Shown here: piece by piece, positions 6,680 through 26,534 of the stretch
Layout: every line of letters begins with the position of its first letter
How positions within the stretch are numbered: position 1 is the stretch's first letter
NCBI GenBank assembly: GCA_013239625.1
Contig: MU053629.1
Location: forward strand, 2,011,567-2,075,566
Direction: 5' to 3'
From: Lama guanicoe
Taxonomy: Eukaryota
Length of the DNA: 64,000 nucleotides
Notes under the pieces: generated by a model
Database searches by the model: none
Told to the model about the DNA's origin: nothing
Seen by the model: the letters and a program-made list of their open reading frames with translations, nothing else
Translations under genes and position numbers: made by a program

Positions 6680-7620
6680 GTTGGGGGGAAAACCGCTCTT
6701 GCAGGACACTGGAGCGAGAGAGCAGTAAAGGAAGAAGTGGGGGAAGCGCACGGAAGTTGGGAGGAAGGAGGTCTTTTTACCCACTCTTCTTCCCTAGCTC
6801 TGCCAAGGGCGGCTCCCCACGGTGCCCAGCCGACTCACAACCCCCGCAACCCCAGAAGCCGGGCTCTGTCCCAACGGGGTGAGCAGGGGAAGCAAGCAAC
6901 AGAAGTATGGGATTGCCCCGGCCACCTCGCCGAGCTCCACGCTCTCCTTTTGACCCAGGAGGATGCTCCCCCTTTCAGAGTGAGCCCTCCAGGTGGCAAA
7001 CTCCCGGTCCACACCGGCCGAAGTCGTCTGCATCCGAGGGGGCGCCTCCTCCGCAATCTCGACTCGGCTTCCCAAAACTCTCGCCCAACGGTGTCCCCCA
7101 ACCCTCCGATTCCACCCCCGCAACCCTTCACAGTCACACACGCCTGCCTGAGCCCCACCCAGGATCTCCGCGCTCCCCTTCCCGACCCGGAGAAGGGGCC
7201 CCCACCCGCCCCTACAGACACACACACCCTCGGGCTCCAGCCTCCCGGACCCCGTCGAAGCCGGAGCAAGTACCTGGTCGTGCCGTGCTCCGGAGCTCAG
7301 ATGGGGCGGACGCAGTCCCCTCCCGGAGGCGCCGATGCTTCTCTACCCACCCGCAGCGGCGGCTTCTCTTTTTCCCAGGAATGGGAGGGAGGAGAGGTGC
7401 GAGAGGGGAGGGGGAAGACGGGGAGCAGAGGGGCGGCAGAAGCCCAGCCGGAACCACTAGCGCGGGCCCCACCCTCAGCCCAGCGCAGAGCACACTAGCG
7501 CTCCCGATAGGTCAAACTTAAAGCAGGCAGCAAGAAATGGACACCACCACTTCCGGGTCATCCCCACTACCGCCCCTCCTTAGCAACCGCGTGGGGTTGC
7601 TAAGCGGAAGTGCCTTCAAA
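6680..7620 (-). promoter_or_regulatory. CSNK1G1: CpG-island promoter (probable CSNK1G1)
   Basis: Abrupt GC/CpG-rich block in AT-rich surroundings; ETS motifs cacttccggg (7548-7557) and cggaagtg (7605-7612), GC box ccgccc, paired RFX-like half-sites. The gene name rests only on the known mammalian order CSNK1G1-PCLAF-TRIP4. Confidence 0.65.
7274..7550 (-). other. CSNK1G1: Non-coding first exon (probable CSNK1G1 5' UTR)
   Basis: Minus-strand donor CAG|GTACTT at 7274/7273 inside the CpG island; TSS end approximate; no kinase coding sequence in the window. Confidence 0.55.
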
Positions 7621-10498
7621 GACAACCACCCTCATTTCTTCTGGGACTAACAAGAGGTATGAGGGACGTGTGCTCCTCTTTGGCAAAACGCTCTTACCTT
7701 CTGCTCTTGGTCTTGGGTGGAGCACGGGCTTCCCTGCCAAAGCCACGAAGTGCACCCTGATTTCTCTTCAACTGTACTCCCCCTACCAGCCCCCAGTTAC
7801 TATTTACTCCTGTTCCCTTCCTCCCTGAATCCCAGGCGGACCCACTGATTTCTCCTAAGGCTGACTGTGGTCCCTCGTGGGAGTTACTTTTTGGCGGTTT
7901 AGCAAGCATCTCCCTCTTGTGGATTTTCAGTTGTGTTTCAACTGGGTTTTTAAAAATCTCCAATGTTATGAAAGCTTTTTCATGCACTTCGCTCTCCTGT
8001 GACAGCCCCTGAAACCGAATAATGAGAAAGTTTTGCGTTCACTAATCTTCTTTTGAAAGGACTGCACATGTTTGTGTATGATCTAGAAATAACCTGGCTA
8101 AATGGAAGGGGAAAACAAAGATTCACTGTAAATAGAGTAGAATGATTACTCCCTAAAAGAAAAGAAAAAAATGAGAAAAGGCCAGAGGAAGCTGGTAATC
8201 AAACTTGGGAAGGAGGAAGACATTTAATCCTCCACTCAGAATAAACCTTCATTCCCATACTGTGGACAGAACAGTGTTAATAAGAGACATTTATTCTTGT
8301 GTTGGGGTGATCTGAGCTTGAAAAACATTGGGAAAACCACTGCTTGGGGCAAAAGCCAACAAACTAATTAATCCTCTCTTCTGAAAAATTACCTATATCT
8401 TTATGGCAATTAAATATTCAGAGAAATGTAGTTGGGCATTCAGAGAAAAATGAGTAAAAATCTTGGCTTAACTTTCCTATCTTGAATAAGTCTGCTTAAA
8501 AGCAGTAAAGTTTAATCGTAGCTCATGAATTTGTTATCTAGCCCATGGCAGTGAATGTACTTGCAATTGCTGGCTATTGGTCATAATAACTTTGGTCATA
8601 ATTTTTTTGGTCACCACTTAGTCACCAATACTGAACTGTTTTCCACCTAGCTGGGGCAGAGGAAATGAGCTTTGGTAACTCTAAAGAAACAGCAGGTCTG
8701 TTGGTTTCCTATACACATGATACAGCATTAAACTGATTCACCTTAGAGTCAGTTCAGCAAAACCTTTAGGAAATCACTAGGTTCAAATGTCATTAGAAGG
8801 TTGTTTAATAAATCTGTAACATTTCAACCCTTGCTATGCACATACATACATGATGTGGGAGTATATATGTACACAATTCAAATGGAATGTGAGCACAATT
8901 ACCTGGCTGTAACTGACAAGTGATGATTCTGCTACCATGACAAAATAGAGCTTGCCAACAGGTTTAAATATTTTAAAATTTTAATTAGAAAAGTAAGATT
9001 ATAAGCCCAATGAACAACTTATCTGAAACTATGGTGGACTCAGATGTCTCTAAAAAATTAAAAACATGAATTGGTAAATGTGTCCCATAGAAGGAAATGT
9101 TTTATTGGGTAAAATAGTTAAGGTCAAACACGGCAATTTGTGTCAACATAAAAATGCAAATTCCTATGCATCATTCATTTTTCCTGTTGTCTGAAGAAAT
9201 GTGACTTAAATTAGCATATAACAACATTCATTTAGATCCACTCTTCCTACAGTTTTTTAAAAATTATTATTCAATCACTTTTGTATAGGTGCATGAATAC
9301 CTGGCTTGACTCCTAAGTGGTCACGTGACTTCCGTAATTCTATCATTTTCAACATACTCATTATTTGGAGACCTCAAAAGATGTATAGCACAGGTGTATA
9401 TATTTATCAAAGCTTGTACACTGAATATATATGCACCTTATTGTATGTAAATCAATGTTGTAAGTGTTTAAAAATTCAAATAAATAAATAAATATGTATA
9501 TAACACAATCCACACCTAAAACTAACTATGTAGGTTTAACTACACTTTTAGGATTTTTTGAGTAGTACCACAGGAATCCATAGTCTTAATATGAACCATA
9601 ACTAAGACAGTGCTCTCAGATCTATGCTAGATCTCAAATAGCCTTCAAGGTCAGTATAGTACCTTCATCCTGTAGGACCTCCAGCCATTTTTTCCAATCT
9701 CTTGAAAGCCTTTTAAAAATTTTTTAATTGTCCCTTGCAATCATTTAAGAAAGAATTAAGGTATCTAAGGTTTATTTTGGGGAAACCCAATACTCTGTTA
9801 CTATTAAATTATTATTTATTATTATTAATTATTGAATTAATACTTAAATGCTCAAATATTCTTAAAGTTCTATTGGCAGTTCCAAGTACTAAAGAAAAAA
9901 TAAGTAAACATAAAAGATACCAAAATTAATGAATTCTTGGGATCAATTAGAAGAAATGTAGCCAGATTTACCATTTATCTGCCTGAGCAGTATACAAGAT
10001 GAAAGGCATGGCCCCATACACATTCTCTTAAGGGACTTAAGAGAAACTCACTTAGGATAAATGTGACATAATAGAATGTTTAGCTTTAGCCTTAAGAAGA
10101 GAAGGCTAAAGATGTAACAGCTATCTTTAAATACTTAAAAGTTGTCACATGGAAGGAGTAACTTGTTCTATGTTATTTTGAGGACAGAACTAAGAACAGG
10201 AGGAGAGTTCAGAAAAAAATCAAATTTTTAATTCATAGCATTTTCACAATTAGAGCTGCCAGCTAATAAAACAATCCACCTAATGAAAAGCTATAGCTGG
10301 CCTGGGGGAACAAGATAACTTCTAACATTCCTCTCAGTTTTGATTCAGGGACCATCTCTCCCTCCTCCATAGGCTATCCTCAAAGGTAAAAAGAATCATC
10401 TTAACACTGTCAGTTGGACAAAAGCCCAGCTAAATCTTCAGATTTCCCAAAAATGAGTTAGCCTGAAGGATTCTAAGTACAGTGAGATTTGTAAGCAG

Positions 10499-12494: not shown

Positions 12495-12699
12495 CTGTAG
12501 AAAGAATAGAGAACTTCAATAGTCACCTGAGCCAAATGTTTAAAAATCAAAACATAAACAGTGTTTTAAAGACATATAAATCAAGAACATTAATTAACAG
12601 TGCAGTGGGTGTGGTCAAGAGACTGGAAATGAGAGAAAATTAGACTCCAGTAACTGACAAACTCCTACAAATTCCAAATCCTAGAGCGATAAAACTTTT

Positions 12700-12862
12700 T
12701 AAAATATTTTATTTATTTTTATTTATTATCCTACCATTTTATTATTTTTTAGCAGGGAGGGTAATTAGGTTTATTTATTTTTAATGGAGGTACTGGGGAT
12801 TGAACCCAGGACCTTGTGCATGCTAAGCATGTGCTCTACCACTTGACCTATACCCTCCCCTT
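12700..12862 (-). mobile_element. tRNA-Ala-derived SINE with target-site duplication
   Basis: Full head plus tail; TSD tagagcgataaaactttt (12682-12699) / tagagcgatgaaattttt (12863-12880). Confidence 0.92.
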
Positions 12863-13076
12863 TAGAGCGATGAAATTTTTAATAATTTATTTTGCCTGTG
12901 AATTTGCCAAATCAGTGTCTCCTTTAGGATATGTTGCCATTTTTATTAAAAGGGAATCTCTATTTCTATAGCATTCTATAAGGAGGAGGAGGGTAATCTA
13001 CCTCCTTATAGATTAAGTGGATTGATGAGGAGTATAATCATTCAGTGAGAACTCTGTAGTAATAAAAGGCAAAAAA

Positions 13077-13148
13077 GGGGTGGGGGGGGTCAGTGGTAGA
13101 CTGCATGCTCTGGGTTCAATCACCAGTGCCTCCATTAAGGGGAAAAAA
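13077..13148 (+). mobile_element. Internally deleted tRNA-derived SINE
   Basis: tcagtggtagactgcatgct...ctgggttcaatcaccagtgcctcca. Confidence 0.7.
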
Positions 13149-13871
13149 ATTTTAACCAATACACTCAAGCAGAGAAAATACAGCAAGTTGTCATATTTGA
13201 CTGTATACTCTTTTGGAACTATGTGAATGTATTACCTAATTAGAAAAACCCCAAAACTGTCTTAAATTGGCATGCGGTAGTCATAGCTTTTGAAAAATAA
13301 TTTATATTATCCCAAAGCTATTTTGTACTTATTATACTTTTTATACAGAAAAAGTCAATTAAAAGCTTAACCATAAATCAGAATCTTTTTCAGAGCTGAT
13401 AAAGGTTTGTGAGATCTCTCCTAAAATAATCAGTTTTCAAATTAGATCCAGTAAGCCTGAATGGTCATAGAGCTAGGTAGTCAAAGAAGGAAACTAAAAC
13501 AAAGGTTTTCTGATTTAGTATAGGATTACCATTGACTCACCTACCATTATATTACCAAGAGGTCTTCATTGTACTTGCCTGGAAATGAAATCAAGTTAAC
13601 AACTTAACACTATCATGACCCAAAATTCTTTTTGTGGGGGACCTGATTTAACTTACTTTAGGTATCACAGTTCTGTTCAAGGTTTTGAGCAGATAGTCTT
13701 TCTTGATTCTGATTCTCCCCCATGCACCTGATGGGTGTTTACCCAGCCTTTGTAAGAATTATGAAGTCATAGGAGTAGCGATGTTCTATATTTTGAATTA
13801 GAGAGTTTATAGCAGAAGTCCTTCTAATATACTGATAGTTTACTATTTACTATCAATACTAAATCTATTGA

Positions 13872-14057
13872 AAGAGTTCCCATCACAAGGAAAAAAAGTT
13901 TGTTTCTTTAATGTGTCTATATGAGATGATAGATGTTCACTAAACCTATTATAATCATTTCATGATGTATGTAAGTCAAATCATTAGACTGTACACCTTA
14001 AACTTATACAGTGCTGTATGTCAGTTTTGTCTCAATAAAACTGGAAGAAAAAAACAG
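13872..14057 (+). mobile_element. LINE-1 extreme 3' end fragment
   Basis: ctgtacaccttaaacttatacagtgctgtatgtca...tctcaataaaactggaagaaaaaaa; flanking repeats taaatctattga (13860-13871) / taaatctatcga (14058-14069). Confidence 0.75.
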
Positions 14058-14724
14058 TAAATCTATCGATTTACCATCAATAAAGTGATACTTACAACTC
14101 TCACAAACAAAAACAAATGTTAAGAAGCCTAAAGCAATAATGTAAACCTCTATTACCTAGTTTTATGTCACAGATTTTATTATACGATGGATCAAAGTTC
14201 TTTATAAGACTATATGTGTAATCTTTCTCCATATGATGAAAAGCCTGTGATACACGTTTTATTGCTATGATGATCAATGGCATAGCCACATTTGGCTATA
14301 TTGCCAAATATTTTATGTCCTTAATGGAAGTCACAAATAATTCAAGAGGACTGTCATATATTCTAGAGCTAATATTGACTTTAAGCTTGTTCATATTAAC
14401 ATGAGAAAGTATATGGAAGAATAGTGCCAGAAAATGAGAAGGAACTAAAGGAGACGTATAGGAAAACAAGTCTATTAAAAAACTATCCAAAAATGTATCT
14501 CCTTGCTTGTTGATTTTACTGAAACCAGGATTCATATAGTGATATAGCAACAGAGTATAAAATTTGATTAATGCTCCAGAATTTAACATTCCTTTTAAAC
14601 ATCTCCTAAGATGGAAAGTAGGCACTCAATAACAATTTACTAAATGATCTTATGAAATTGTTGACTAATTCTTAACATTTTATATGCATAAACATCATTT
14701 TATACGTAAAAAGCTTCGTTTTAA

Positions 14725-16536
14725 TTGCTCTTTTGGCCATTTATTTTTATTTAGTTTGTGTTCAATGCAAATCAATTCCAAACACAATGTACAATCCAAA
14801 ACAGTACAGTGTTTTTGTACACTGTTCAGATGTACAGTGTTCAGATATGAAGCAAAGGGGTGTGTTCACTCACACACATAGATCTAACAGAGCTTGAGAT
14901 CTGTTGGATCTGGTTGTTCCTGTGTAGGTTTCTAAAGATGGCAAATATTGGCTTAAGACTTACTAAGAGTACTATGGACATACTAGATACTTAACACCTA
15001 AGCATCATTCTGTGAACATGTGAACTAAAGATTTCACGGAGTATCTATTTCTAAAAAGGTTTCTGTACATCAAGGCAGTTGTAAAGTTTTGCTTTCCAGA
15101 ATCAAGCCCACTTAGATTTAGTAGCAGGTTCTAACTATCTTAAAAATAATGACTGATGTAGGTGTTCCACATGTAGCTATTCTGATTCATCAAGTTTTAC
15201 AGAAAGAGCAAAAAACAGTTGTGAATTTAATGCAGGCAAATTTCCAGTCTTCATTTCCCAAAAACCCAATACACATTATTTTGGCCTCCTTCATATATTT
15301 GCCTCTTAATTTCAAGATCTGTCAAATATGCCTTCAAAACAGGTCAATTTTTAAGCTGTAAAAATTATTCAACATATGCACAAATACGAAGCAGTATTTT
15401 AAGACCGGTTGAAATCATCGTACTTCTAATCTTTGGAATCAAGTTAAGAGATCCAAATCAGCTATATGAGTCTGGCACCCTTATTGGATGGGACTGTGTG
15501 ATAGGAAATACCTATCATTTGATTTTGAATATATATGCAAGGATTACTTAATCTTGGATTTGTAGTAGATTGCAATTCATCATTGCCCTGGCACACATCT
15601 GTTACTACAAAAAGCAAAATGCAAAGGCAAATCCAAAGCCCCAGAGGAAAAAGTTACAAAAAAAACAGTAAAAACTTAACAATGTAAAACCTGGTTTAAA
15701 AAAAAAACCTGACAGAGTATATCAGCATTACACTAGGATTGCTGAAACAATACATAGAAGGTTTACCGTAATACCTGGTGAGTGTACATCATAAACAGAA
15801 TCACTGAAGCTTTTTATATTGTCTAAGCATTTTATGGCCTTCTAGGTTTCATGAACCAAAATGAAAACTGAATCTCCATTCCACAGCTCATCCTTTCTCT
15901 CTAGATGACTATGAAGTTATTATTTACCAGGTACGGTTTCAAGTGTCCATATTTCTTAAATTACACTTAATCACATCATTAATTCTCCATGGTCTTTCCA
16001 GTGTTGTACGTGAAACTCCAACAGATTTAATTTTGGCATTCATTATCTGGTCAAATCCTTCAGACGCTCTTTAAAATAGTCCAATTCGGGACTGTCAACA
16101 TTTTCTGTGTTAATAAGGAGTGGAATTAGTAGATTTGATGAAGACCTGTTTTTTTTTTCCCCCTTGCCACGCTGGACTTGTAGATGCCGCATGGAGTGAG
16201 CTTTAGGAGATGGGTTGGTAAACTGTAGCTGTTTCTTGGCCAAGTCTCTTAACGGTAGAGATGTAGAAGGGCAAGCAAGACCACAAGGAGACTAGCTGTT
16301 GACTGAAAGGCACAGCCGGCCGCCGTGGTTTGGATAGAAGGAGCTTGCGTGCTGGTTTTAACAACGGACGAATAAATCTGCATGGGTAGGAGCAGCACCA
16401 GAAGCAGCAGCCCCAAACTGAGCCTGGCCGCCATCTCCTTGCCCGCGTTGATCACTGCGCCTTGGACGGGGCTCGCTATGCGGGCGCTGGAGGATCACCG
16501 GGTCCTGGCTGATGCAAGGGAGGGACCTAGCAGGGT
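14725..16536 (-). pseudogene. CD24: Processed CD24 retrocopy (5' UTR, intronless CDS, ~1.5 kb 3' UTR) inside PCLAF intron 3
   Basis: Translation [26 protein letters not shown]...[24 protein letters not shown] matches CD24 (human [26 protein letters not shown]...[24 protein letters not shown], recalled). The parental intron position CAG|ATTTATT is fused at 16378/16377. Downstream sequence resembles the CD24 3' UTR (caggtcttcatcaaatctactaattccac...) and ends in tandem AATAAA at ~14740-14751. Confidence 0.93.
16249..16434 (-). CDS. Residual open frame of the CD24 retrocopy, 61 aa (expression unknown)
   Basis: ATG at 16434 in context gagATGg, uninterrupted to TAA at 16251-16249. The ORF-track start at 16455 is a GTG. 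Confidence 0.3.
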
Positions 16537-17314
16537 CTTAAATTAAGTGACTTCATAATGCCAGTGACGTGGCACCAAGCCTACCTGCCCTCACCACTCC
16601 CCACCTCCAGTCAAATAATTTGTTTTTGAAATAAAAAATTTCAAAACTCTTTGGAGAGTCTGGACACTAATACTCATAAATCGACTTAAAAAGCAGGTTG
16701 CTATTGCTTTTTTTTCCCCCAATGGTACTATTGTTTTCCTGATTCTTAAAATATGTTTGTCGTTGAAAGTTGGAAGCACTGAGTATGAGGAGAGATTTCT
16801 ACCCAGAGATTATCACTATTGATACTTGGCATATTTTGTACAGACATTTGGTATATTTATATACATGTCTTTTACACAATAATCATTGTATTTTTGTATC
16901 CAGAATTTTTGCTTAACATTTATCAAGAACACTTGCCTGACATTAAAAATTTGAACGCCTGATTTAATTATCTTCTTAGGTTTACACACTGAACTCTGTA
17001 TGTGTGCAGTTTTATACCCACCTTGTTTTGTTTTGAGGTATCCTTGCATAATTATAGAGGAGGTGTGAAGAAAATACACCATGGTGTTAGTTTTGGTTAT
17101 TTCTTGGTGATGGGGATTTCTGTATTTTTGAACTTTTCCATAATGGTTATATACTTCCTGTGGAGGTTGAACTAGTAGTTTCTGAGAGGTGGGGTTAATG
17201 GAATTCAAGCTACATAAACCACCATAGAAATTGCTTTTGAAAAAAATCTATAGAAAACAGTAAAAATTAAAGAATAAAGACCAGAAGTTCATGGTTAATA
17301 CTGTAGTACTTATC

Positions 17315-17355
17315 ATCTGAATGGGAACTTTATCTGAATGGGAATTTTATCTGAC
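17315..17355. repeat. Short tandem duplication (17-bp unit atctgaatgggaa(c/t)ttt, ~2.4 copies)
   Basis: Directly visible. Confidence 0.8.
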
Positions 17356-17657
17356 CCTCTTTCAGTGACTGAGATTAGTAAAAATAATAACTTCTACTTA
17401 CGTCTCAAATTTCAGAGTGACTTAAATAAGGGATTAGCAGTTTTTAAAAGTTCTGGTTTCAGAGTTTGGGTATTTTAAGCACCAGCCACCCTTTCTCCTT
17501 CCTTAGCCCTGCAATAAACCTTTTTCGGCTCCAAAAAAAAAAAAAAAACTGGTTTATATTTTCTTATCTGCTCAAAGAGAAATCTTTCCGTTACTCGATA
17601 TTCTGTTGTCTTTTATCTTCAAGAATATGTCTTCATATTCCAAATATAAAAACTTAC

Positions 17658-23442: not shown

Positions 23443-24589
23443 ATGATGATTATGAATGGCATTATATTACATATATTACAAACTAGAGATTACAATCATT
23501 AACATATTCCTTATAAAAAAAGAACATTTTTATTCTTAAGGTTCTCGTAATTTCATCATAATATGCATGATATACTAAGTCCTATTGTACAAATAGCTTA
23601 GGTTAGTCTCTGTCTCCAAAAATTTAACATTTTAGTTAACAGAACAGTATAAAAACAGGTAAGGAAGTTGAATACGTTAGAATTAGTATTAAACGTAGCA
23701 GATTTCTATGAAGAAACAAAACTTGTACCATTTATGAACATTCAGAGTGTTTTTTTAAGCTGGTAAATCATGGATTTTCCAAATTAATTATAAAGACAAT
23801 CTATACTTAATGTACATCAACATATATATGATTCTGATTATTTATGTTGGTAAACATATTAACATAAAAAGGTGAAACAGCATCCATTATTGTAATTACT
23901 TAGCCTAAACAGCCTAATGTGAATGAAAAACCTATACACGTAACATAAAGCCAGTCAATTAAATTTACTGATGAACTATGTCAGAAGACATTATGTTCTC
24001 CAGAAAAATCTGGCTAAATTTTTCCCAGTCCGTTGTCCCAGTGGAGTAGGAAGTAGCCAAAGACCTTTAACTCTGGTCACCTTGGGTTCAAATAATTTTA
24101 ACTTCTTAAAAATCAATACGTATGATTCATGTGGAAGGTCTTCAAAGCCAAACCCCAGCACCTGTTTTACTTGTTTTCCCCTCCTTGAGCTTGCAAAGTT
24201 GTCGTGGCCCTCCTAGAAAAGACCTGGCTCAAAAAAATAAATAGAGATTTTAGCAGCCTGACTCTAGTATTGGACTGTATAAAAACCACAGTGCCACCGG
24301 AGCAAATCCTTACAGCATTTACTCTTAGTTTTCAAGTGCTATTTAAAATGTTTTACATAAAACCAGACCAATTCAAGAGCTGGCCCCTCCAGTTACAGGG
24401 TATTATGTTGTTTTTTTCCTAACCTGTAGTTTTTATAGGTATTTGCACTGTCTTCTCAGCAGAATTCCCAATTTTCACGTCCTACATCTGACGACGCGGA
24501 AGCATCACGCACAGATGGAGCCCTGGTACAATTGAAAACATCAGGAAGTGGGAAGGAGGAGGTGGCACAGGTGGGAGGGATCTGTGTTG

Positions 24590-24736: not shown

Positions 24737-24837
24737 ATGGCGGTGGCCGGGGCGGCGTCCCAGGAGCAGCTGGTGGGCTGGTGCACCCAGCAGTTGCGGA
24801 AAACTTTCGGCCTGGATGTCAGTGAGGAGATCATACA
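24737..24837 (+). CDS. TRIP4: TRIP4 / activating signal cointegrator 1, exon 1
   Basis: MAVAGAASQEQLVGWCTQQLRKTFGLDVSEEII; donor CA|gtaaga; 101 nt. Confidence 0.96.
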
Positions 24838-26534
24838 GTAAGACCGGTTTAGATTCGAGGTGGGAAGTAGCTCTGGGATGTGCGCTGGCTGAGCGAACCG
24901 GGAAGCGAGGAGGACTAAAAAGTTGATGAGTGAAGCAATGTAATAAAAGGACTGCTCTCCGTCTCCGAGCGCGGGATTTTGACCTCCGGCTTTTTAGTTT
25001 AGTTTCTGGAGTGAGGTGTCAAGGCTCCACGATCGGCCGGCGGGGCCTTTTTTTCCCATAGGAAAACGCCAAATGCCTGATAATTAGACTTGGAGGACTC
25101 CCCGGAGCCGGTTTCGTATAGATTCTGGGGAGAAGAGGCAAGCCAAATTGTCTTTCCAGAAATTCCTTACTCTGAGTATTTCAGTTTGCCGGATCCGGTT
25201 TGTGTCAGATAGGACATGAAATTTAAATGGGTGCGGCGCAATACAGTGCAAAAATAGCTCCGGATTCCCGAGTCCCAGGTTCTATTTTCTGTGGTCATTC
25301 ACCGGTTTTTGGAACTTCAAGCAACTTAATTTTCCTCTTTGTACCTTAGTTTCCTCATATGTAAAATGAATAATTAGCAGAGGTTATCTTTAATGCTTTA
25401 TGTTTCTTATCAGATGGAGATGATAACATGACTTAATGTCTGCTTTTAATTGATTTGTTTCACACATTTTTTTTTATAAAGGCTTGGTTGGTTTTATTGT
25501 TTGCTTTTTGCGCTACTGCATACCAGGTGCTGGGGCAACAAAGATGGTTGAGACGATTGGATTCTCCTTCGTTGATGAGTGCTGAGATGGGAAAAGTGCA
25601 GGGTGTTGTGGGAGCATTGAGTAAAAGACTTCGTTAGGATTTGAGAAATTCGGAAGCTTTATTGCAAGGGATGAGTTTAACCTGAGAACTAAAGGATAGG
25701 TAGGTGGCAGTGCAGTTTTCAAGCAGAGGAAAAAACTTCTACAAAAAAATTGAACGTAATCAAGGAACCTGAAAGTGTTTCTTGATTTGTTTCCTTGCTC
25801 GTTGATTCTGACACCTGAATTACATTCTAGGGCTTTTGTAGAAAGTAAGGTTAATTTCTGAATTTCAGAGAAAGTAGACTTGTTGGCAAGGAGAGAGTTA
25901 AGAGAGCCTATTTTAAAGGATTATTTTGATGCAGAGATGGAGGAAAACAAGCCAAAAAAGCAACTGCACCCCTGGCCTGGGGTTAGGTAATCATCTATTT
26001 AGAATCCAAGATATATAGGCAATAAACCAACTTCAGGACTATCTATTTCTCTTAAAATTTTTCCAAACAAATGCTACAGATTTTGGGTAATATGCCCATA
26101 ACCCAGCAGGTACAAGACAGTTGATTGAGCCAAAGTGAATACTGTTACCTTCACCTGAGAAATTGGTATTTATCACTAATTTCAGTCACTGTCAGTTTTT
26201 GTCTGTAATATCTTTTGAAGCTTAAACTGTTTTTTCATCTCCTAAATTCTGTCCTTAGAACTAAAGCATTTCTTATATCTGTAAAACAGTAGCCAAGGTC
26301 TTCTCCCTTTAAGAAGCACTGGTGTAAGGTAAATATACAGTTTTTGCATATAATTTAAAATCTTTGATATGAATTAGCTTTACTATGTGCATGATGGGAG
26401 GAAATAAGTGTAAAAACCACTCTAATAATTTATATATCTGGAGTTGGGTAGGTATTTAGTTGTTTTTTGAAATTAAAGTTTTAGGTCTAAAAATAAAATA
26501 AAGGATTATTTTGAGCACTGGAATAGACTATCAA

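Follow-up and report, generated by a model that had tools for sequence, protein, structure and literature searches.

The window (the whole 64,000-nucleotide stretch of Lama guanicoe DNA analysed here) carries the PCLAF gene on its minus strand, with exons at 19436-19391, 19096-19016 and 17820-17658 and a fourth exon from 12494 down. When spliced, these exons give an intact 111-amino-acid PCLAF protein, so the CD24 copy that is the subject of this study can be placed in host intron 3 (12495-17657), as a preliminary description of this DNA had proposed; it lies on the PCLAF strand. The window also contains two GC-rich islands. One of them, head-to-head with PCLAF and some 5.3 kb away, includes a short ATG frame (24737-24841, plus strand) that we take to resemble the first exon of TRIP4; the other, at 7001-8000, may by our assumption be the CSNK1G1 promoter.

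The parent gene is a two-exon CD24 on contig C3175; it is a true CD24 orthologue, and its protein matches dromedary CD24 at all but 1 of 78 residues. The copy in PCLAF lacks the parent’s 2,777-bp intron, with the fused junction at 16378/16377, and aligning it to the parent (a check suggested in the preliminary description) shows 79.9% of 1,680 aligned bases to be identical, in an alignment broken by 68 gap blocks. At the 3′ end, the CD24-derived 3′ UTR (14727..16248, minus strand; 1,400 bases aligned to the parent, of which 80.6% are identical, with 49 gaps) runs through two overlapping AATAAA signals (14751, 14745) to approximately 14727, which is also the end point of young copies. The earlier identification of an intronless, near full-length retrocopy is therefore correct. 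At the 5′ end, homology continues to approximately 16604 and includes parental promoter sequence; the originally proposed extent of 14725..16536 thus holds on its 3′ side and stops short on its 5′ side. Beyond both limits there are only weak AT-rich alignments, which score 32.6 upstream (against the parental stretch from -1500 to -175) and 31.1 past the poly(A) site.

Within the windows compared on either side of the copy, no repeat of at least 8 bases marks a target-site duplication, and there is no clear poly(A) tract, so an L1 mechanism can only be inferred. The preliminary description had rightly reported both as missing but had counted this against function; such decay is expected because of the copy’s age (see below).

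The open frame comprises 61 codons (16434-16249, minus strand, stop included). The equivalent of the usual first ATG is GCG (16446), and the ATG at 16434 has G at both -3 and +4. The translation scores 39.1 bits against the Pfam CD24 family (PF14984; curated cut-off, 27), compared with 38.6 for the human protein P0059; three other rows (beaver, Peromyscus and P0104) do not reach that cut-off. Many CpG dinucleotides survive: the observed/expected ratio is 0.58 at 16250-16620 versus 0.14-0.24 in the flanks, and it is 0.48-0.58 for the window copy, 0.11-0.16 for the two most decayed copies in this genome and 0.31-0.56 for the three youngest. The lost first start codon, the strong context of the second, the intact frame and the retained CpGs all stand as they were first described.

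On the minus strand, a predicted signal peptide (codons 1-22; 16369..16434) spans the fused junction; it is assigned by CD24 homology and has a core hydropathy of 3.1. It is followed by a predicted mature peptide of 18 residues (codons 23-40; 16315..16368), the boundaries of which come from the CD24 alignment; seven of its residues are Ser or Thr, and it contains no N-glycosylation sequon. The remainder, a predicted GPI-addition signal (codons 41-61 and the stop; 16249..16314), belongs to the Pfam CD24 match and has a tail hydropathy of 2.69, and the predicted attachment site is Gly40. By rule and by homology, with the omega position that we take for CD24, the frame is predicted to have the signal peptide, the small omega and omega+2 residues and the hydrophobic tail of a GPI-anchored protein, with no cytoplasmic part.

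Orthologues and age of the CD24 copy

Orthologous open frames were found in human (GKGM353; AAQ89011.1/Q6UWT8), marmot, Arctic ground squirrel, beaver, deer mouse and seven further records, within a set of short CD24-like proteins collected by protein searches and a profile search. Together with the window frame, these make 13 full-length rows that form one clade (support 100/99), apart from 24 hand-picked CD24 and CD24-like proteins; the bootstrap of this tree had not fully converged. Left out of the tree were the near-duplicates P0006, P0010, P0011, P0014, P0060, P0061 and P0173, a Colobus model with a divergent C-terminus, two PCLAF fusions and other CD24 matches. The clade has a long stem. 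In the 2.05-Gb genome, the window locus is the best genome-wide match of both human P0059 (E 1.4e-9) and marmot P0004 (E 3.6e-9), and a profile built from primate and rodent rows alone gives the window frame 68 bits; with this profile, the parent and the youngest copy score 49-50. GKGM353 is accordingly the human orthologue, being in the same clade and having the window locus as its best genomic match; unlike the camelid copy, it keeps both ATGs and a conserved Pro-Leu motif. Its database listing is a bare record with no CD24 name, gene name or RefSeq accession, and the rodent orthologues are labelled ‘uncharacterized’. A query of the ESM Atlas with the copy’s protein returned the CD24 cluster alone.

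The position of the copy is fixed by gene models in which PCLAF ends in the CD24-copy peptide: P0051 (four XP accessions; Piliocolobus, macaque, Cercocebus) and P0058 (the bat Molossus). The synteny evidence comes from these primate and bat models and from a human probe label (see Discussion). Together with the frames in human and rodents, they indicate that the insertion predates the split between the primate/rodent and the camelid/bat lineages, which we take to have occurred some 90-100 million years ago. The original suggestion of a lineage-specific retrogene must consequently be abandoned. The same applies to three amino-acid changes that had been read as CpG decay: the position of the G>S change is non-Gly in 13/13 clade rows; Met, the outcome of T>M, is present in 7 of the 13 clade rows and in 2 of the 24 CD24 rows; and A>V is common to marmot, ground squirrel, P0001, P0002 and P0016.

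Among the protein records, which show open frames only, none that is named as carnivore, horse, whale or afrothere belongs to the clade, and lineages in which the frame has been lost go uncounted. The metagenome data scanned held no orthologous DNA of the copy.

All 13 clade rows lack N-glycosylation sequons, whereas each of the 24 CD24 rows has them (2-5 per row); the mature part is 18-28 amino acids long in the clade versus 29-43 in CD24. As a separate observation, the mature peptides of P0004, P0009, P0013, P0022, P0103 and P0104 have in common a TYYET motif with acidic neighbours, which is absent from human and camelid; from its sequence, it is a possible tyrosine-sulfation site.

Promoter sequence inherited from CD24

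The segment at 16514..16604 (minus strand) is collinear with the parent from -175 to -86, and hence comprises approximately 90 bp of parental promoter. It includes a G-rich box that is matched in the parent, a 13/13 base match, GGTGCCACGTCAC, at 16576, and, within the latter, the element CCACGTCA (16572-16565; parent -144). We read CCACGTCA as CRE-like; no CD24-specific paper on this element was among the matches listed. The equivalent of the parental TATA-like element, at approximately 16543, is degenerate. The promoter-only alignment score of 41.3 was reached by none of 2000 shuffles and ranked first among 1,276 background windows, although a GC-rich site near 24,500 in the window scores only slightly less (37.7).

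Young copies start at -86 and -87 from the parental ATG, and we take this point, approximately 30 nt below a TATA-like element (-116), as the main start site of the parent. From these starts and the alignment to the parental 5′ UTR, we predict a 5′ UTR at 16435..16513 (minus strand) that includes the dead first start codon; the sole upstream ATG (16556) sits above the predicted start site. The element CCACGTCA is absent from all five other copies tested, which start at -87 to -61. Across this element, the upstream translation of P0016 matches that of the window and keeps a PRH-x-HY stretch; the match of P0013 is weak. It therefore remains plausible, as first suggested, that the copy’s own GC-rich 5′ end may serve as a promoter.

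Among the 24 sequencing runs listed, six were RNA runs, which contained 0.25-0.47 of the sampled locus words, a signal that PCLAF pre-mRNA or DNA carry-over could also produce and to which we give no weight as evidence of expression. The parent CD24 is not the source of these words, since 0 of 2,071 31-mers of the window copy are common to the parent or to five other copies.

A possible alternative junction with PCLAF

The primate and bat models P0051 and P0058 join PCLAF to an internal AG acceptor (16351..16353, minus strand; first exon base 16351). Here, a junction with PCLAF exon 3 would be in frame, and the pyrimidine tract before 16351 has a fraction of 0.60, versus 0.70-0.85 at real PCLAF acceptors. 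It could be argued that the main target of selection has been an alternative PCLAF last exon, by which PCLAF would gain a hydrophobic tail together with a new 3′ UTR, and that the stand-alone frame is incidental. The use of the same junction in fusion models of three Old World monkeys and a bat is in keeping with this idea, as are the orientation of the copy on the PCLAF strand, its intact AATAAA and the in-frame junction; in addition, the conserved FVPLTS codons might double as pyrimidine tract and AG. We nevertheless judge it unlikely. All 13 rows have an open, hydrophobic signal-peptide segment on the 5′ side of the acceptor; the Met of this segment is kept even in P0012, P0013 and P0016, the listed starts of which are elsewhere; the human record (GenBank/UniProt) starts at the copy’s own first ATG; and the pyrimidine tract is weakened in this genome. 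The bat fusion, P0058, has Lys at the omega-equivalent site.

Selection on the frame

Between the 3′ UTRs of copy and parent, the divergence is 0.22 substitutions per site, and the 1,400 aligned bases are interrupted by 40 gaps that would shift a frame. With 30, 50 or 70% of that divergence assigned to the retrocopy branch, the simulated neutral chance that a 67-codon frame stays open and keeps an ATG on the camelid branch alone is 13%, 3.6% or 0.9%; the simulation is lenient because synonymous divergence is 0.53. Pairwise dN/dS between copy and parent is 0.29 (42 alignable codons, p=0.003), a value that includes the constrained parent branch; as that constraint by itself gives the approximately 0.5 expected for a neutral copy, this is weak support for selection.

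The frame is open in the primate, sciurid, beaver, muroid and camelid lines, among records that show open frames only. We consider that stronger evidence is to be had from the pattern of change within the clade. Insertions and deletions in the mature part all preserve the reading frame. Despite substitutions, each of the 13 rows has one of G, N, S and D at omega and one of A, S and T at omega+2. At position -9 of the tail, 12 of the 13 clade rows have Leu and 23 of the 24 CD24 rows have Ser, and clade-specific tail residues such as this one are held across orders. The first ATG, the second ATG or both are kept, depending on the line, and human keeps both.

These data bear on whether the copy might be a neutral processed pseudogene, the short frame of which survived by chance while the databases display survivors only. 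The frame is indeed short, survival on one branch is as probable as 13%, the ascertainment effect is real, and the human stand-alone protein is listed without a RefSeq accession. Against this, at least five separate lines have kept the frame open, fast-evolving muroids among them, clade residues are shared across orders with only in-frame indels, and other camelid copies, at 74%, 89% and 92% identity, are broken; we regard the explanation as very improbable. Equally relevant is the idea that the function lies in the RNA, with its conserved CD24-like 3′ UTR, and that the frame is kept merely for transcript stability. The UTR divergence of 0.22 is indeed lower than the synonymous divergence of 0.53, but constraint on the parent UTR and fast, CpG-rich synonymous sites can account for that gap, and the idea does not explain why the signal peptide, the pattern at the omega site and the hydrophobic tail have been retained; we give this reading almost no credence.

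The camelid copy itself has Val-Lys in the most conserved motif, where 12/12 other rows have Pro-Leu, and it has lost the first ATG; with the degenerate TATA-equivalent, these changes could mean that a retrogene functional in the ancestor, and still so in rodents and primates, is decaying in camelids. This, too, seems decidedly unlikely to us: the frame, the strong-context second ATG, the omega site, the tail, the CRE-like element and the CpG richness have all been kept, and the camelid terminal branch (0.21) is inside the clade range (0-0.41).

Our preferred reading is hence that the window copy is probably a conserved, protein-coding CD24 paralogue, predicted to yield a GPI-anchored peptide with O-glycans only. 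As an intact frame is also found in human and several rodents, this old intronless copy is likely a real gene that has been largely overlooked.

Other CD24 copies in the genome

Four younger CD24 copies have 88-95% identity to the parent, and the three broken copies mentioned above are among six other camelid copies examined. There is a stop in the copy on contig C4216, a frameshift in that on C6652 and stops in that on C12521; on C5323, the first ATG is gone and the frame stays open when read from the second. We also noted a young retrocopy at C9322:2471194-2471430 (plus strand; 95% identity) that has a fully open 78-amino-acid frame and both ATGs, with no upstream promoter element, and a weak CD24-like match containing a stop at C55228:14060717-14060905.

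A second old intronless copy, on C5752 (ORF from 22718261, plus strand; 74% identity), has an open 71-amino-acid frame and keeps the first ATG. Its homology to the parental upstream region reaches -183 and takes in a TATAAAA box; the CpG observed/expected ratio of this copy is 0.53. No Pfam match was obtained for it at E 0.01. Among 173 fetched proteins, its best match is P0091 (score 225), followed by P0097 (171), a VWA/EGF matrilin-like model with a CD24-like tail at its end; CD24 rows score at most 140. Its sequence makes it a candidate for a second promoter-bearing CD24 retrogene.

Discussion

We hypothesize that the copy arose before the boreoeutherian split by retroposition of a CD24 transcript initiated upstream of the main start site, and that the inherited CRE-like and TATA-like core would drive an independent transcript from approximately 16513 to the AATAAA near 14745. 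Translation would begin at ATG 16434, the first start in that transcript; residues 1-22 would direct the product to the ER and be removed after Ser22, and residues 41-61 would be exchanged for GPI at Gly40, to leave an 18-residue product with O-glycans only. By a second route, PCLAF exon 3 would splice to the AG before 16351. The product may then be a small display of sialylated O-glycans for lectin-type receptors, with a specificity unlike that of CD24.

CD24 itself is described, in a passage of PMC10358856, as GPI-anchored, heavily glycosylated and binding Siglec-10 through sialic acid; because CD24 signals in this manner, a role as a lectin ligand with altered specificity would, by analogy, be the likeliest one for the copy’s peptide. 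The signal peptide, Ser/Thr-rich core, GPI signal, 3′ UTR and core promoter of the window gene all derive from CD24 (heat-stable antigen), from which it differs in being intronless and nested in PCLAF, in having no N-glycan sequons and a more hydrophobic tail, and in belonging to a separate clade. A still broader picture, in which humans, rodents and camelids have within PCLAF a second CD24-like gene with a captured CD24 promoter, an O-glycan-only GPI ligand for Siglecs or selectins and a membrane-anchoring PCLAF last exon, and in which the C5752 copy suggests a small family of CD24 retrogenes, is one that we advance only tentatively and with considerable doubt as to the whole.

GKGM353 probably originated in a cDNA survey of secreted proteins, the patents of which reportedly called it a CD24 homologue; going by the naming scheme, we also take UNQ353 to be GKGM353. 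One probe label, in a section of PMC7057089, joins UNQ353, CSNK1G1 and KIAA0101, in keeping with a position in PCLAF (KIAA0101). Precedents exist for both routes proposed here: an account of retrogenes (part of PMC4772013) has the parental promoter inherited in approximately 3% of expressed retrocopies and describes intronic copies that form chimeras with host exons, the same origin route, and the window locus shows signs of both. The main text of that paper contains no occurrence of CD24 or KIAA0101, although its supplements may list the copy. HAPSTR2, described in an excerpt of PMC9834230 as an ancient retrogene formerly annotated as a pseudogene, has the same kind of origin; unlike the window copy, it did not inherit its promoter. 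Human CD24 pseudogenes, likewise intronless copies, are placed at 1p36, 15q21-q22 and Yq11 in a passage of PMC10358856. The possibility that the window copy corresponds to human CD24P2 was rejected, as a listing in PMC4081011 puts CD24P2 beside RFX7 at 15q21.3, and not in PCLAF. In the portion of PMC7589721 that mentions them, CD24P1 and CD24P2 appear merely as network nodes. Searches of the main texts of openly available papers yielded no description of a CD24 copy in PCLAF.

As a ‘do not eat me’ signal, CD24 is the target of drugs. CD52 has been called a paralog of CD24, and the passage on compensation in that article names CD52 alone in this capacity (PMC4792398); if our reading is correct, the window gene would be a further candidate for redundancy in CD24 knockouts. 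The copy could also confound PCLAF/KIAA0101 expression probes and the interpretation of intron-3 variants. In evolutionary terms, the locus would combine promoter inheritance, a feature of approximately 3% of expressed retrocopies, with possible fusion to a host gene. A conserved sister gene of CD24 would, if real, be a protein-coding gene missing from human and rodent annotation, and it would offer a natural test of the roles of N-glycans versus O-glycans in CD24.
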